A DNA stretch of 64,000 nucleotides. Source: Escherichia coli. Lineage in GTDB: Bacteria; Pseudomonadota; Gammaproteobacteria; Enterobacterales; Enterobacteriaceae. Positions 5,446 through 46,755 of this stretch are shown one piece after another. The stretch lies in NCBI RefSeq assembly GCF_003334335.1, contig NZ_QOWQ01000017.1. One strand, given 5' to 3'. The notes under the pieces are model-generated. The model was not told the origin of the DNA. It was given only the letters and a program-made list of their open reading frames with translations, and did not search any database. Each line of letters starts with the position of its first letter. The first letter of the stretch is position 1. Position numbers and translations under genes: made by a program.

Positions 5446-8122
5446 CGAACCCTTACGTCCCGACCCCGATCGTCTGCTGGAACAAACTGCCGCGCCGCAT
5501 CGGGGGAAGCTGAAAGTTTTCTTCGGTGCCTGTGCAGGCGTCGGGAAGACCTGGGCGATGCTGGCAGAAGCCCAGCGACTGCGGGCGCAAGGGCTGGATA
5601 TTGTGGTTGGCGTGGTAGAAACCCACGGGCGAAAAGATACCGCCGCCATGCTGGAAGGGCTGGCTGTTCTGCCGTTAAAACGCCAGGCGTACCGTGGGCG
5701 GCATATCAGCGAGTTTGATCTCGATGCCGCCCTCGCCCGCCGCCCGGCGCTGATCTTAATGGACGAACTGGCGCACAGTAATGCGCCAAGTTCCCGTCAT
5801 CCCAAACGCTGGCAGGATATCGAAGAACTGCTGGAAGCTGGCATTGATGTTTTCACTACCGTCAACGTTCAGCATCTGGAAAGTCTGAATGATGTGGTCA
5901 GCGGCGTCACCGGAATTCAGGTACGGGAAACCGTGCCCGATCCTTTTTTCGATGCCGCCGACGACGTGGTGCTGGTGGACTTGCCCCCGGACGATCTGCG
6001 CCAGCGGCTGAAAGAAGGCAAAGTCTATATTGCCGGGCAGGCGGAGCGCGCCATTGAACATTTTTTCCGCAAAGGTAATCTGATCGCCCTGCGCGAACTG
6101 GCACTGCGCCGTACTGCCGATCGCGTTGATGAGCAAATGCGCGCCTGGCGGGGGCATCCTGGCGAAGAGAAAGTGTGGCACACGCGCGACGCGATCCTTT
6201 TATGCATCGGCCATAACACCGGCAGCGAAAAACTGGTCCGCGCAGCGGCGCGGCTGGCGTCACGGCTGGGTAGCGTCTGGCACGCGGTGTATGTTGAAAC
6301 CCCTGCCCTGCACCGCTTACCGGAAAAAAAACGTCGGGCAATTCTCAGCGCCTTACGTCTGGCGCAGGAACTGGGCGCGGAGACGGCAACACTTTCTGAT
6401 CCAGCGGAAGAGAAAGCGGTAGTGCGTTATGCCCGTGAACATAATCTCGGCAAGATTATTCTCGGTCGCCCGGCCTCGCGCCGCTGGTGGCGTCGGGAAA
6501 CGTTTGCTGACCGACTGGCGCGCATCGCCCCCGATCTCGATCAGGTGCTGGTCGCGCTTGATGAACCACCCGCCCGCACGATTAACAACGCGCCGGATAA
6601 CCGCTCTTTTAAAGACAAGTGGCGTGTACAAATTCAGGGATGCGTGGTTGCCGCCGCGTTATGCGCCGTTATCACCTTAATTGCCATGCAGTGGCTGATG
6701 GCGTTTGATGCCGCCAACCTGGTGATGCTGTATCTGCTTGGCGTGGTGGTGGTGGCGCTATTTTATGGACGCTGGCCTTCAGTGGTTGCCACCGTCATTA
6801 ATGTAGTGAGTTTCGATCTCTTTTTTATCGCCCCACGCGGCACGCTCGCCGTCTCTGATGTGCAATATCTGCTGACCTTCGCGGTGATGTTAACCGTCGG
6901 GCTGGTGATCGGGAACCTTACTGCTGGCGTGCGTTATCAGGCGCGGGTAGCCCGTTACCGCGAGCAACGCACACGGCACTTATATGAAATGTCGAAAGCT
7001 CTGGCGGTGGGCCGCAGTCCGCAGGATATCGCTGCCACCAGCGAACAATTTATTGCCTCCACGTTTCATGCCCGCAGTCAGGTGTTGTTGCCCGATGACA
7101 ACGGTAAATTGCAGCCGTTAACACATCCGCAAGGAATGACGCCGTGGGACGATGCCATCGCGCAGTGGAGTTTTGATAAAGGCCTGCCTGCGGGCGCGGG
7201 CACCGACACGTTACCCGGTGTACCGTACCAGATTTTGCCGCTAAAAAGCGGCGAGAAAACCTACGGGCTGGTGGTGGTGGAGCCGGGGAATCTGCGCCAG
7301 TTGATGATCCCGGAACAGCAGCGCCTGCTGGAGACGTTTACGCTGTTAGTCGCCAATGCCCTTGAGCGGCTGACGCTAACCGCCAGCGAAGAACAGGCGC
7401 GGATGGCAAGCGAACGTGAACAGATCCGCAACGCCCTGCTGGCGGCGCTTTCGCATGATTTACGCACGCCGCTTACGGTGCTGTTTGGTCAGGCAGAAAT
7501 CTTAACGCTCGATCTGGCAAGCGAAGGATCACCCCACGCCCGCCAGGCCAGCGAGATCCGTCAGCATGTGCTGAACACTACCCGACTGGTGAATAATCTA
7601 CTGGATATGGCGCGAATTCAGTCCGGCGGCTTTAATTTGAAGAAAGAGTGGTTAACGCTGGAAGAAGTAGTCGGCAGCGCGCTGCAAATGCTGGAACCGG
7701 GTTTATCGTCGCCCATCAATCTTTCTCTGCCAGAACCGCTGACCTTAATCCACGTTGACGGGCCACTCTTTGAACGGGTGCTGATTAATCTGCTGGAGAA
7801 CGCGGTGAAATATGCGGGTGCGCAGGCCGAAATTGGTATCGATGCCCACGTTGAGGGCGAAAATCTACAACTGGATGTCTGGGATAACGGCCCCGGTCTT
7901 CCGCCAGGCCAGGAGCAGACGATATTTGATAAGTTTGCTCGCGGGAATAAAGAGTCGGCAGTACCGGGGGTAGGGCTTGGACTGGCAATTTGTCGGGCGA
8001 TAGTGGATGTACACGGGGGCACTATTACCGCGTTCAACCGACCGGAAGGTGGTGCCTGTTTTCGTGTTACACTTCCCCAGCAAACTGCCCCTGAACTTGA
8101 AGAATTTCATGAGGATATGTGA
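5438..8122 (+). CDS. kdpD: Sensor histidine kinase KdpD
   Basis: Start [14 protein letters not shown]... at ATG 5438; 894 aa; overlaps the kdpC 3' end by 8 nt. Confidence 0.93.
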
Positions 8123-8796
8123 CAAACGTTCTGATTGTTGAAGATGAACAGGCTATTCGTCGCTTTCTGCGCACGGCGCTGGAGGGCGACGGGATGCGCG
8201 TCTTTGAGGCCGAAACGCTGCAACGCGGCTTGCTGGAAGCGGCAACCCGTAAGCCAGATTTGATTATTCTCGATCTCGGCCTGCCCGATGGTGATGGGAT
8301 TGAGTTTATCCGCGACCTGCGCCAGTGGAGCGCGGTGCCGGTGATTGTGCTTTCCGCACGCAGCGAAGAGAGCGACAAAATCGCCGCGCTGGATGCCGGA
8401 GCGGATGATTATCTGAGTAAGCCGTTTGGCATTGGCGAATTGCAGGCCCGTCTGCGCGTCGCATTACGCCGCCACTCTGCCACCACCGCGCCCGATCCGC
8501 TGGTAAAATTTTCCGATGTTACCGTCGATTTAGCCGCCCGCGTGATTCACCGGGGTGAGGAAGAGGTGCATCTCACACCAATTGAGTTCCGCCTGCTGGC
8601 GGTGCTGCTCAACAATGCCGGAAAAGTACTCACCCAGCGCCAGCTCCTTAACCAGGTGTGGGGGCCAAACGCGGTCGAACACAGTCACTATTTGCGTATT
8701 TATATGGGACATCTGCGACAAAAACTGGAACAGGATCCCGCCCGCCCACGCCATTTCATTACTGAAACCGGTATTGGCTATCGGTTTATGCTTTGA
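8119..8796 (+). CDS. kdpE: Response regulator KdpE (OmpR family)
   Basis: GTG start overlapping the kdpD stop (GTGA); [17 protein letters not shown]..., 225 aa. Confidence 0.93.
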   Translation: MTNVLIVEDEQAIRRFLRTALEGDGMRVFEAETLQRGLLEAATRKPDLIILDLGLPDGDGIEFIRDLRQWSAVPVIVLSARSEESDKIAALDAGADDYLSKPFGIGELQARLRVALRRHSATTAPDPLVKFSDVTVDLAARVIHRGEEEVHLTPIEFRLLAVLLNNAGKVLTQRQLLNQVWGPNAVEHSHYLRIYMGHLRQKLEQDPARPRHFITETGIGYRFML

Positions 8797-8832
8797 ATAT
8801 TAATTTTAATACAGCCTGCCTTTTATTAATTA

Positions 8833-21917: not shown

Positions 21918-22080
21918 GCCGGATGCGGCGTGAACGCCTTATCCGGCCTACAAAAGCACGCAAACTCAATATATTGCAGAGATCATGTAGGCCTGATAAG
22001 CGTAGCGCATCAGGCAATTTAGCGTTTGAAACTGTTTGTCTGTTCCTTGCCGGATGCGACGTAAACGCCCCATCCGGCAT
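21918..22080. repeat. BIME cluster of three REP units
   Basis: Three copies of the gccggatgcgRcg...ccttatccggcctac type motif in alternating orientation. Confidence 0.75.
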
Positions 22081-22094
22081 AGCGAAACTTAAAA

Positions 22095-23759
22095 TTACTC
22101 GCCTACTTTCGCCCAGGTATCACGCAGCCCAACGGTGCGGTTAAATACCGGTTTTTCCGCCGTAGAATGGCGGCTATCGAGGCAGAAGTAACCTTCACGC
22201 TCAAACTGGAATGCTTTACCCGCAACCGCATCTTTCAGCGACGGTTCAGCAAAGCCCTGTTTGATCACCAGCGATTCCGGGTTAATCACCGACAGGAAAT
22301 CATCCGCAGCACCTGGGTTAGGCACGCTGAACAGACGGTCATACAAACGGATTTCAACCGGCAGCGCATGTGCCGCGCTCACCCAGTGAATAACACCTTT
22401 GACTTTACGACCATCTGCCGGATCTTTGCTTAAGGTATCGGCGTCATAAGTACAGAAGATGGTGGTGATATTACCTTCGGCATCTTTCTCGACGCGTTCT
22501 GCCTTAATCACATAAGCATTACGCAGACGCACTTCTTTACCCAGCACCAGACGTTTGTACTGCTTGTTAGCTTCTTCGCGGAAATCGGCGCGATCAATCC
22601 AAATCTCACCGCTAAACGGCACCTGACGGCTGCCCATTTCCGGTTTGTTCGGATGGTTCGGCATGGTAACCATTTCGCCTTCGCCCTGATAGTTTTCGAT
22701 AACCAGTTTCACCGGATCGATAACCGCCATTGCGCGCGGCGCATTTTCGTTGAGATCTTCACGGATGCAGGATTCCAGCGACGCCATCTCAATGGTGTTG
22801 TCCTGCTTGGTCACGCCGATGCGTTTGCAGAACTCACGAATAGAAGCCGCAGTGTAACCACGACGACGCAGACCGGAAATGGTCGGCATACGCGGGTCAT
22901 CCCAGCCTTCAACGTGCTTGTCGGTCACCAGCAGGTTCAACTTACGCTTGGACATCACGGTGTATTCCAGATTCAGGCGCGAGAACTCATACTGGCGCGG
23001 GTGAACAGGAATCGTGATGTTGTCCAGTACCCAGTCGTACAGACGACGGTTGTCCTGGAACTCAAGCGTACACAGAGAGTGCGTAATACCTTCCAGGGCA
23101 TCGCTGATGCAGTGGGTGAAGTCGTACATCGGGTAGATGCACCACTTGTTGCCAGTCTGGTGGTGTTCAGCAAATTTAATACGGTACAGCACCGGATCGC
23201 GCATCACGATAAACGGTGAAGCCATGTCGATTTTCGCACGCAGGCAGGCTTTACCTTCTTCAAAACCACCGGCACGCATTTTTTCGAACAGCGCCAGGTT
23301 CTCTTCAACGCTGCGGTCGCGGTACGGGCTGTTTTTACCCGGTTGCGTCAGGGTGCCGCGGTATTCGCGGATCTGTTCCGGCGTCAGTTCATCAACGTAC
23401 GCCAGGCCTTTATTGATCAGTTCGATCGCATAGGCGTGGAGCTGATCAAAATAATCGGAGGAGTAACGGACGTTACCAGACCAGTGAAAACCTAACCACT
23501 CTACGTCGTTTTTGATCGACTCAACATACTCGATATCTTCTTTTACCGGGTTAGTGTCGTCGAAACGCAGGTTGCACTGGCCTTTATAGTCCTGGGCGAT
23601 CCCGAAGTTCAGGCAGATAGATTTCGCATGGCCAATATGCAGATAGCCATTCGGCTCCGGCGGGAAACGGGTGTGTACTGTGGTGTGCTTACCACTGGCC
23701 AGATCTTCATCGATGATCTGACGGATAAAGTTAGTCGGGCGGGCTTCTGCCTCACTCAT
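22095..23759 (-). CDS. glnS: Glutaminyl-tRNA synthetase
   Basis: 554 aa [20 protein letters not shown]... with HIGH and VMSKR motifs. Confidence 0.97.
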
Positions 23760-23961
23760 CGTGGATTCCTCAAAGCGTAAACAACGTATAACGGCGTATG
23801 ATCTTATAAGCGGGACAGGCTGACAACTGTTAGTTTTTTAAAATTGATAATCTAACAAGGATTATGGGGATGATTGATGAAAAAAAAAGCGGCAGAGAAG
23901 ATCTCCACCGCTTGTCATTGTTGGATGCGACGCTCAAGCGTCGCATCAGGCATAAAGCAGA

Positions 23962-30278: not shown

Positions 30279-30330
30279 ATAGCAACCACGTCTGCGGACG
30301 TGGTTGGCTCTGATGACAAACGCCAAACTG

Positions 30331-30428
30331 CCTGATGCGCTACGCTTATCAGGCCTACGCAGCTCCTGCAATATATTGAATTTTCATGCTTTTGTAGGCC
30401 GGATAAGGCGTTCACGCCGCATCCGGCA
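30331..30428. repeat. REP/BIME element
   Basis: gcctgatgcgctacgcttatcaggcctac ... gtaggccggataaggcgttcacgccgcatccggca. Confidence 0.75.
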
Positions 30429-30674
30429 TGAACAAATCGCACTTTGTCAGCAATTTGGCCCCCGTAAAATATAAACATTCAATAAAACCCGCTAAAAATT
30501 ATCGATTCATCAATAAATATATCCTCACACCAGACCTTTTTTCACCAATCGACAATCACCATTACGTTTTTTATTTTTTCACCGCCAAATCGCTTGCGCA
30601 CAGTGCTGCTTTGCGGCATTTTTTTAAACAAGCAAACACAACAAGCAACAAATACCAGGTTAACGGAGAAGGTT

Positions 30675-32718: not shown

Positions 32719-32795
32719 GGCTACGTAGCTCAGTTGGTTAGAGCACATCACTCATAATGATGGGGTCACAGGTTCGAATCCCGTCGTAGCCACCA
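32719..32795 (+). tRNA. metT: tRNA-Met (elongator, CAU)
   Basis: 77-nt ggctacgtagctcagttggttagagcacatcactcataatgatggggtcacaggttcgaatcccgtcgtagccacca with encoded CCA. Confidence 0.95.
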
Positions 32796-32804
32796 TCTTT
32801 TTTT

Positions 32805-32889
32805 GCGGGAGTGGCGAAATTGGTAGACGCACCAGATTTAGGTTCTGGCGCCGCAAGGTGTGCGAGTTCAAGTCTCGCCTCCCGCACCA
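32805..32889 (+). tRNA. leuW: tRNA-Leu (UAG)
   Basis: 85-nt class II tRNA gcgggagtggcgaaattggtagacg...cgcctcccgcacca; anticodon loop tttaggt. Confidence 0.95.
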
Positions 32890-32912
32890 TTCACCAGAAA
32901 GCGTTGTACGGA

Positions 32913-32987
32913 TGGGGTATCGCCAAGCGGTAAGGCACCGGTTTTTGATACCGGCATTCCCTGGTTCGAATCCAGGTACCCCAGCCA
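32913..32987 (+). tRNA. glnU: tRNA-Gln (UUG)
   Basis: 75-nt tggggtatcgccaagcggtaagg...; anticodon loop ttttgat. Confidence 0.93.
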
Positions 32988-33002
32988 TCGAAGAAACAAT
33001 CT

Positions 33003-33079
33003 GGCTACGTAGCTCAGTTGGTTAGAGCACATCACTCATAATGATGGGGTCACAGGTTCGAATCCCGTCGTAGCCACCA
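33003..33079 (+). tRNA. metU: tRNA-Met (elongator, CAU), second copy
   Basis: Identical 77-nt sequence to the first Met tRNA. Confidence 0.95.
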
Positions 33080-33126
33080 AATTCTGAATGTGTCGAATAT
33101 GTTCGGCAAATTCAAAACCAATTTGT

Positions 33127-33201
33127 TGGGGTATCGCCAAGCGGTAAGGCACCGGATTCTGATTCCGGCATTCCGAGGTTCGAATCCTCGTACCCCAGCC
33201 A
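33127..33201 (+). tRNA. glnV: tRNA-Gln (CUG)
   Basis: 75-nt Gln tRNA; anticodon loop ttctgat. Confidence 0.93.
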
Positions 33202-33249: not shown

Positions 33250-33340
33250 CAATGTCGAATGCGATGTTGACACGTCTTATCCTTCAATGTCGGATGCGAC
33301 GCTGCCGCGTCTTATCCGACCTACGGTTGGCACGCATCCG
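33250..33340. repeat. Degenerate REP-like elements
   Basis: gtcggatgcgacgctgccgcgtcttatccgacctac and an upstream partial copy. Confidence 0.5.
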
Positions 33341-33354
33341 GCAATGTTGTAAGG

Positions 33355-46714: not shown

Positions 46715-46755
46715 GCTGCCGGATGCGGCGTAAACGCTGCATCCGGCATCGGCGC
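46715..46755. repeat. REP-like palindrome between convergent hscC and djlC
   Basis: gctgccggatgcggcgtaaacgctgcatccggcatcggc. Confidence 0.6.

Follow-up and report, generated by a model that had tools for sequence, protein, structure and literature searches.

REP and BIME-1 repeats at the 3' ends of genes in 64 kb of Escherichia coli DNA, with an extra decayed unit between glnS and chiP

The imperfect palindromes found at the 3' ends of several genes in the analysed stretch of E. coli DNA (64,000 nt, here called the window) belong, with very high confidence, to the E. coli REP/BIME repeat family, a reading that is taken jointly with the mechanism proposed below for their function and spread. 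Three loci carry a complete BIME-1, and the cluster between glnS and chiP possesses one further, decayed y-like unit. The position of such repeats in 3'UTRs, their IHF site, their association with RayT and their variability among strains have all been published, and the BIME-1, RIB and RIP elements were reportedly described by Gilson, Bachellier and Hofnung and by Boccard and Prentki in 1993. The finding is therefore ordinary, known biology, with the extra decayed y at glnS-chiP as the sole departure. Catalogues of the E. coli repeats go back to the 1980s, and the annotation of K-12 counts 355 REP elements; this statement is based on the literature, since the current MG1655 RefSeq record holds no REP or RIP repeat_region feature in the interval matching the window. 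The additions made here are modest: allele frequencies, the replacement of a terminator at nagD and a resolved joint between a REP and a kdpE fragment.

The window is about 99.9% identical to K-12; its first 32,989 bases are 99.91% identical to one K-12-lineage (O16:H48) genome, and positions 20500-23500 are 100% identical to K-12-lineage (O16:H48) genomes. The annotation was transferred from that K-12-lineage genome and from MG1655. The gene order is kdpFABCDE, speFL-speF-potE, ybfI, ybfG, ybfP, pgm, seqA, ybfF, ybfE, fldA and fur, followed by chiQ, chiP, glnS, nagE, nagBACD, asnB, the tRNA operon, ubiF and miaB up to lnt, and in the last part by gltIJKL, rihA, hscC and djlC up to mrdAB. The rayT gene is located outside the window; in MG1655 it lies at 247.6 kb with y and z2 REPs on its flanks (the "REPtron"), and its presence in the source strain is assumed from the relationship to K-12.

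Family membership and class assignment

Profiles of the y and z2 classes were built solely from the REPs flanking rayT in MG1655, which makes them independent of the window, and were used for an nhmmer scan. The class definitions were taken from later open-access papers, including PMC8266576, PMC3479197 and PMC3333891. A REP consists of a GTAG and an ensuing imperfect palindrome broken by an AA/GC bulge, with a length in E. coli of 35 nt for y, 29 nt for z1 and 37 nt for z2 (PMC8266576); a figure legend in PMC3479197 calls the long REPtron units z1, at odds with three other sources. BIME-1 consists of one z1 and one y, in single copy, with a long, well-conserved linker L that often holds an IHF site, and in BIME-2 z2 and y are repeated in tandem, with short linkers between them (PMC3333891).

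The scan revealed three full-length y units (profile 1-35) at 14490-14524 and 21917-21951 on the minus strand and at 30394-30428 on the plus strand, each with E=3e-11. Units of 30 nt with the sequence GTAGGCCTGATAAGCGTAGCGCATCAGGCA, counted as the 29-nt z1 plus one flanking A, are present at 14560-14589, 21987-22016 and 30329-30358. A half y match was obtained at 12972-12989 (E=3e-3), and a decayed y-like match at 22048-22080 is described with the glnS-chiP cluster. The remaining units are as follows:

23920-23952, minus strand: REP-like, perfectly palindromic hairpin with a head of z2 type (GCCTGATGCGACGC; z2 profile, E=6e-5), 14 nt past the stop codon of nagE, whose terminator comes next
33254-33343, minus strand: degenerate cluster after the terminator of the tRNA operon (REP profiles), composed of the three units below
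33254-33282: decayed z2-like unit (E=0.02)
33289-33324: z2-like REP with GTAG (E=3e-6), in which paired changes on both stem arms preserve base-pairing
33330-33343: truncated y end
40335-40362, minus strand: decayed y-like REP that keeps the bulge geometry and has lost GTAG (y profile, E=3e-4), 46 nt past the lnt stop codon
46717-46748, no strand assigned: solitary y-like REP in the convergent gap of hscC and djlC (y profile, E=8e-6; strain comparison), without GTAG and with the bulge closed, which gives a near-perfect palindrome

The sequence-only reading of the window had listed REP palindromes at six sites, and REP sequence is found at all six, within 1-4 nt of the positions it gave. The elements align to the REP classes, the best three specifically to BIME-1 (y, L and z1). 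Its count of three units at 21918-22080 agrees with the y, z1 and decayed y identified there, and the site at 33250-33340 that it called degenerate contains the decayed z2-like unit, the changed z2-like unit and the truncated y end. The family was thus named correctly, but several of the listed units lack GTAG or the stem bulge and are better regarded as decayed relatives than as canonical REPs. The hairpins at 23920-23952 and 40335-40362 were absent from that list.

The two published features of a RayT substrate divide the units. The 5' GTAG stands at the hairpin foot of the three y units, the three z1 units and the z2-like unit at 33289-33324, and is absent from 22048-22080 (CTAT), 46717-46748 (CGAT), 40335-40362 (GTTA), 23920-23952 and the truncated 12972-12989. 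Every canonical y and z1 unit has the AA/GC bulge, as does 40335-40362; in 22048-22080 it reads GG/GC, in 46717-46748 it is closed, and 23920-23952 has none. With their GTAG, their bulge and the lengths of 35, 29 and 37 nt, the elements resemble the REPs that serve as RayT substrates, and the y units of the window differ by 2 nt from the crystallised REP (PMC3479197, PMC8266576). In contrast, 22048-22080, 46717-46748, 40335-40362, 23920-23952 and 12972-12989 are without GTAG, the bulge or both, and by the published requirements these five units should no longer be substrates of RayT. The resemblance of the window to BIME-2, known from REP325 and the REPtron flanks as tandem pairs of y and z2 with short S linkers and s/l/r flanks, is confined to 33289-33343, where 5 nt separate a z2-like unit from a truncated y. 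The window differs from BIME-2 in that it has no tandem arrays, z2-like units occurring only at 33254-33324 and 23920-23952, and in that the glnS-chiP cluster has z1 and a long L.

The tail motif CTTATCMGGCCTAC occurs seven times in the window at no more than one mismatch, against 0.01 occurrences expected from shuffles, and all eight REP loci are extragenic, although annotated genes take up 88% of the window and the remainder only 12%; this does not look like chance. All eight loci lie downstream of genes, so that the placement at gene 3' ends noted in the sequence-only reading holds throughout, and the distance from the stop codon is 8-16 nt at hscC, nagE and glnS. The gaps bearing REPs are tandem in six cases and convergent in two. 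None of the seven divergent gaps among the 36 gaps of the window carries a REP, a contrast with the other gaps that is not significant at this number (p=0.31). The distribution is in line with genome-wide figures in the literature of about 40% for tandem, 60% for convergent and 1% for divergent gaps (bioRxiv 10.64898/2026.03.23.713779). A marginal y-profile match at 17770-17797 (E=0.056) was rejected as probably due to chance, being located inside the ybfF coding sequence and without GTAG.

BIME-1 anatomy and the glnS-chiP cluster

The three BIME-1 elements lie at 14490-14589, 21917-22016 and 30329-30428, each with y and z1 inverted and a 35-nt L between them. Their parts, together with the surroundings of the glnS-chiP cluster, are the following:

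14490-14589, minus strand: BIME-1 between the pgm terminator and the start of ybfP (REP profiles, paralog homology)
14490-14524 (minus), 14525-14559 and 14560-14589 (plus): y, L and z1 of this element (profiles, sequence comparison)
21874-21898, minus strand: intrinsic terminator of glnS, a 10-bp stem followed by a T-run (terminator scan)
21917-21951, minus strand: canonical y REP of 35 nt, GTAGGCCGGATAAGGCGTTCACGCCGCATCCGGCA on the minus strand, the distal unit of the glnS BIME-1
21952-21986, minus strand: L linker of 35 nt with the core TCAATATATTGCA (sequence comparison)
21987-22016, plus strand: canonical z1 REP, reading as the 30-nt z1 unit on the plus strand (sequence comparison; published length class, PMC8266576)
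22017-22047, no strand assigned: spacer made up of the z1-side flank of BIME-1 and a further copy of its y-side flank (CTGTTCCTT...), recognised as a direct repeat
22048-22080, minus strand: decayed y-like REP with CTAT for GTAG and GG/GC for the AA/GC bulge (E=3e-6, profile 3-35)
22095-23759, minus strand: glnS coding sequence
30329-30428, plus strand: BIME-1 between nagD and asnB (REP profiles; Rfam ES036 match at 30351-30393)
30329-30358 (minus), 30359-30393 and 30394-30428 (plus): z1, L and y of this element (profiles, sequence comparison)

The y units are 100% identical across the three loci, and so are the z1 units. The L linkers share 23-25 of 35 positions in pairwise comparison, with the invariant core TGCAATATATTGA, and each of them contains, at the same position, a 12/13 match to the IHF consensus WATCAANNNNTTR, which is a consensus match only; in the glnS linker this predicted site is ACTCAATATATTG at 21964. 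Alignment with paralogs at fepA-entD and mog-satP, where BIME-1 also occurs, demonstrated that the repeated unit is about 150 nt long and thus larger than two REPs. The conserved flanks on both sides are themselves inverted repeats, which makes the whole a nested imperfect palindrome with the layout flank, z1 REP, 35-nt L, y REP, flank. With its flanks, the pgm-ybfP unit extends over about 14452-14605 (the paralog homology spans query positions 53-206), and the nagD-asnB unit over about 30311-30459, where it takes the place of the T-tract of the nagD terminator. In all three elements z1, L and y follow each other in the direction of transcription of the upstream gene.

These features, namely (i) inverted y and z1, (ii) an L of about 35 nt with an IHF consensus match, (iii) a single unit and (iv) conserved flanks, are those of BIME-1/RIB/RIP elements. 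A single unit is present at pgm-ybfP and nagD-asnB. The glnS-chiP locus differs, consisting of one full unit and an extra decayed y-like unit with its flank, 31 nt from the z1 side; it looks like 1.5 units of an element described as strictly single. The direct repeat recognised at this locus is 42 nt long (86%), at a spacing of 131.

Downstream of glnS the order is a 16-nt spacer between the stop codon and the stem foot of the decayed y-like unit, that unit, the spacer of BIME-1 flanks, z1, L, y and the intrinsic terminator. Because the terminator (21898-21874, minus strand) lies beyond the cluster, the whole cluster is part of the glnS 3'UTR, and its transcribed strand is predicted to fold to -95.1 kcal/mol compared with -64.9 for shuffles (z=-6.9). 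The BIME-1 at pgm is placed past an intrinsic terminator and may therefore be poorly transcribed from pgm.

Hairpins rich in GC directly 3' of genes could also be nothing more than the Rho-independent terminators of glnS, pgm, nagD and others, outside any repeat family, and it is true that some REPs coincide with intrinsic terminators (the REPt elements of the literature). None of the REP units, however, is followed by a T-tract, and the terminator scan, which recovers the true glnS terminator, finds none at the REP units. Separate terminators with T-runs adjoin them instead, at glnS, pgm (14609-14640), potE (12920-12948), nagE and the tRNA operon, and at nagD the BIME-1 has even removed the T-tract of the terminator. 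Identical sequences of 35 nt and 30 nt recur, moreover, at unlinked loci, and each genome has tens of copies (median at least about 39-40 matching places per genome). As a sufficient explanation the terminator-only reading is refuted by the lack of T-tracts, the neighbouring true terminators and the recurrence, and its probability is judged to be minimal.

It may also be asked whether the BIME-1 linkers are genes for small RNAs (ES036/CssrF of Rfam), with the REPs as parts of these RNAs and REP pairs resembling naRNA4/CssrE. The Rfam model RF02751 (ES036) does match 30351-30393 on the minus strand with a score of 41.1 against a gathering threshold of 37.6; a second ES036 match at 21952-21994 (28.9) remains below that threshold, as does naRNA4 at 21871-21948 (42.5 against 59.5). 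The ES036 model, however, spans exactly the L linker and the REP tails of the repeated element, so that a match reflects membership in the repeat and not a dedicated gene. No promoter for a separate RNA was found at the glnS cluster, where a single weak promoter-like site is at chance level, and stable fragments would be expected anyway as decay intermediates of 3'UTRs. Genes for small RNAs are hence considered very unlikely, and membership in the REP/BIME family is the preferred reading of the linkers as well. For annotation it follows that neither ORFs nor sRNA genes should be called across REP/BIME repeats, one Rfam sRNA family falling on the L linker. Some RefSeq genomes carry a "hypothetical protein" across the glnS BIME-1.

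Strain variation, proposed function and spread

The three BIME-1 alleles were surveyed in 5426 complete E. coli genomes, and each is present in only 37-45% of them. For pgm-ybfP and nagD-asnB longer flanks were used in the queries, as short flanks ranked the paralogs at fepA-entD and mog-satP above the syntenic site. The three-unit allele of glnS-chiP was identified in 2457 of the 5426 genomes; the sampled strains without it have a single y-like REP, corresponding to the unit at 22048-22080, in a locus 131 bp shorter, a difference equal to the distance between the two y units in direct repeat. The nagD-asnB allele with BIME-1 occurs in 2280 genomes, the alternative being 140 bp shorter, and the pgm-ybfP allele in about 2000. 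The units at these loci therefore vary in number or presence by strain, as the sequence-only reading had proposed to check. Of the 4378 genomes with the hscC-djlC locus, in contrast, 4371 are colinear for its decayed solitary REP.

Canonical units bearing GTAG are thus polymorphic, and fixation is seen at hscC-djlC, the only decayed unit compared among strains, in agreement with the published requirement for GTAG and the bulge, though this is no proof of current mobility. The elements also resemble the REPINs of Pseudomonas and other bacteria (PMC3116915, PMC3337134), which are inverted REP pairs within a larger palindrome, show presence/absence polymorphism and are associated with a RAYT gene that is present in one copy at another genomic site (here rayT, assumed from the relationship to K-12); the whole-unit indels of 131 and 140 bp between strains of a palindromic doublet are a trait of this kind. 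They differ from REPINs in that the arms are of different REP classes (y and z1), where REPINs have nearly identical copies, and the linker has a predicted site for a host factor (IHF).

The strain differences might instead reflect only the deletion and decay of ancient immobile repeats, by slippage or recombination between direct repeats, without ongoing insertion by RayT. According to PMC3333891, BIME-1 occurs in single copy and is well conserved, and the short glnS allele can equally be the product of recombination between the two direct-repeat y units 131 bp apart. Between potE and pgm, a segment of 1692 bp lies between perfect 15-nt direct repeats, and in strains lacking it the homology stops exactly there. 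The nagD-asnB locus speaks against deletion. The empty allele has an intact intrinsic terminator, a hairpin followed by the T-tract TCTTATTTTTAC, whereas the T-tract at the hairpin foot is replaced in the window by BIME-1 and flanks, about 152 nt in all; with the T-tract kept in the empty allele and no direct repeats at the boundaries, this looks like an insertion with replacement. The complete identity of y and z1 at three loci, compared with only about 70% identity of the linkers, further points to strong constraint or to recent copying or conversion. Deletion and decay as the only source of variation are for these reasons regarded as possible but rather doubtful.

With membership in the REP/BIME family as the basis, the function and spread of the elements may be pictured as follows, by analogy with literature that concerns other material than these copies. 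Placed just 3' of coding regions, BIMEs would be transcribed into 3'UTRs, as the terminator position indicates at glnS. Their GC-rich RNA hairpins would impede 3'-to-5' exonucleases and could promote partial, Rho-assisted termination, and both effects may tune the balance between the upstream and the downstream gene. On the DNA, the L linker would offer a site for IHF. Transcripts containing REPs are stabilised against decay by the degradosome and exonucleases (PMC10100675), and REPs are described in the literature as partial Rho-dependent terminators and mRNA stabilisers, depending on context. For their spread the repeats, being non-autonomous, would rely on the REP-associated tyrosine transposase RayT (TnpA-REP), which acts on GTAG-bearing REPs in single-stranded DNA and for whose binding and cleavage GTAG and the bulge are essential (PMC3479197, PMC8266576); the canonical y and z1 units retain both features and may be open to this route, which the decayed units have probably lost. 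The filled and empty alleles of glnS-chiP and nagD-asnB provide natural, isogenic-like contrasts for the effect of BIME-1 on the formation of 3' ends.

The truncated REP between potE and pgm

The partial REP downstream of potE represents one end of a further BIME-1, and it is joined to a copy of the kdpE 3' end:

12949-12989, plus strand: truncated outer end of a BIME-1, consisting of the y-side flank (12949-12975) and the first 14 nt of y (profile, comparison)
12988-13132, plus strand: ybfI, a duplicate of the 3' end of kdpE (gapless match to kdpE 8653-8797)

The flank of about 28 nt has a single other good match in the window, at 14463 (23 of 28 positions), where the outer flank of the BIME-1 at pgm-ybfP lies. 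The ybfI copy, a pseudogene in the MG1655 annotation, is 92% identical to kdpE over 131 nt (blastn), and the kdpE match starts within the truncated REP, taking in its final two bases, which leaves no spacer between the two. The sequence-only reading had placed the partial REP between the potE terminator and a "kdpE remnant". The fragment is real; "remnant" is a misnomer, since kdpE itself is intact at 8119-8796, 4 kb upstream, and a duplicate 3' fragment of kdpE (ybfI) is the better description. The same reading suspected a recombination junction beside the partial REP, and this is supported: a truncated y abuts a truncated copy of kdpE, and the architectures of other strains explain the joint. 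The truncated potE REP is a clean, sequence-resolved rearrangement joint within a REP.

Besides the arrangement of the window, four further architectures of the kdpE-pgm region have been identified in other strains. In the majority, potE and pgm are 56 bp apart with one terminator in common, and the homology to the window ends at 12930 and restarts at about 14608-14610, at copies of the perfect 15-nt repeat. The second is kdpE-BIME-1-pgm. The third is kdpE-[y-z2]-ybfP-BIME-1-pgm; in strain WP8-S17, kdpE is immediately followed by a y and a z2 with 10 nt between them, a pairing like that of BIME-2.

From these forms it may tentatively be proposed, as the simplest account though one held with low confidence, that the K-12-type potE-pgm interval is the fossil of a one-ended (homology-facilitated) illegitimate recombination with a non-homologous joint inside a y REP. 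The recipient would have had the order potE-T1-flank-BIME-1-T2-pgm, and the donor segment kdpE'-ybfG-ybfP-BIME-1-pgm would have been acquired with its homology anchor on the pgm/BIME-1 side, the other end being joined illegitimately after nt 14 of the recipient y REP with a microhomology of 2 nt. The geometry of the joint is observed here, and the order of events as well as any causal role of the REP are inferred. Were the proposal true, and were REP hairpins or cleavage by RayT or gyrase preferred points of breakage, BIMEs would promote the capture of accessory genes and not just small indels.

The fourth architecture, potE-T1-flank-complete BIME-1-T2-pgm, was predicted from the joint and then found with a chimeric query in two of the 5426 genomes; strain R32_14_1F carries the complete version of the potE BIME-1 that is truncated in the window. 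The existence of this predicted intermediate allele in two genomes supports the idea of a recombination junction.

The interval between potE and pgm

Two terminators, one on the potE side and one on the pgm side, share in their 5' halves a perfect 15-nt direct repeat, GTAAAAAAGGGCGAT, whose copies lie at the following positions of the window.

12916-12930: GTAAAAAAGGGCGAT, 5' half of the potE terminator
14608-14622: GTAAAAAAGGGCGAT, 5' half of the pgm terminator

The two copies enclose a segment of 1692 bp, which contains a half BIME-1, ybfI, ybfG, ybfP and one BIME-1. This segment is missing from the majority of E. coli genomes; in these, potE and pgm are spaced 56 bp apart with a single terminator common to both genes, and the homology to the window stops exactly at both repeat copies.

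The truncated REP joint in the window predicted a further allele, in which potE, its terminator and flank are followed by a complete BIME-1, the second terminator and pgm; it was then detected by a chimeric query. This arrangement is rare, being present in two of the 5426 complete genomes (R32_14_1F, locus L023 100-370; strain N96, match H220), and looks like the recipient state preceding the arrival of ybfI-ybfG-ybfP. In some strains speFL-speF-potE is wholly missing (loci L021 3390-3510 and L012 3985-4130), and a y REP is located 9 nt after kdpE, paired with z2 in WP8-S17-ESBL-12 and forming part of a BIME-1 in ESDR8. The kdpE-pgm interval thus takes at least five architectures, with REPs at the boundaries in all of them.

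Insertion sequences were also observed in individual strains within the intervals used as queries: IS1A in the potE-ybfG query of strain VL7S7 (match H151), IS1414 in the ybfG-pgm query of strain LR-29-1 (H127), and ISApl1 in the chiP-glnS query of strain E423 (H1).

REP elements, terminators and annotation

Strains that lack the BIME-1 between nagD and asnB have TCTTATTTTTAC after the nagD hairpin, giving a full intrinsic terminator, whereas in the window the BIME-1 stands in place of the T-tract (30284-30328, compared with loci L014 and L015). Since the T-tract is replaced, Rho-independent termination of nagD may have been lost in this sequence, and asnB read-through from nagD could differ from strain to strain.

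Two REP-like units absent from the list of the sequence-only reading have been identified behind genes.

23920-23952: REP-like perfect palindrome with a z2-type head, lacking GTAG and the bulge, 14 nt past the nagE stop codon
40335-40362: decayed y-like REP, 46 nt past the lnt stop codon

The first directly precedes the nagE intrinsic terminator, in the same stop codon-REP-terminator layout as at glnS, while the second has kept the GC/TT bulge geometry and lost the GTAG tail. A y-profile match at 17770-17797 (CCGGATGCGGTATTACGCGCTATCCGTC) is marginal, with an E-value of 0.056; it falls within ybfF, at the 3' end of the coding sequence, has no GTAG, and is probably due to chance.

Rfam family RF02751 (the ES036/CssrF "sRNA") matches the L linker and REP tails (30351-30393, 21952-21994), and RF02564 (naRNA4/CssrE) gives sub-threshold matches on stretches containing a y REP; both sRNA families overlap repeat elements, and multi-copy matches are to be expected. 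In EC6, the RefSeq annotation places a "hypothetical protein" of 53 aa over the BIME-1 region upstream of glnS (locus L008 1279-1437), its end falling inside the first y REP. Similar short calls cover the pgm-ybfP and nagD BIME-1 regions in other RefSeq genomes (matches H84, H57), and these reading frames are probably spurious.

Relation to K-12 and the tRNA operon

The IS5 copy sitting between lnt and gltI in K-12 is missing from the window (about 40578-40585), where the two flanking alignment blocks, 34780-40585 and 40578-62580, have an 8-nt overlap. The missing IS5 and 29 substitutions across 33 kb identify the window as a close relative of K-12, yet not K-12 itself. Two RNA loci of the window are listed here.

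41589-41751: sroC sRNA between gltI and gltJ (Rfam RF00369, 174.8 bits)
32719-33201: tRNA operon of five genes (Met, Leu, Gln-UUG, Met, Gln-CUG)

The placement of sroC is the same as in K-12. In contrast to the five tRNA genes of the window, MG1655 possesses seven (metT-leuW-glnU-glnW-metU-glnV-glnX) and a K-12-lineage comparison strain six; the difference is tandem tRNA copy-number variation. The five-gene arrangement was matched in only 121 of 5426 genomes (at least 80% of the query covered).
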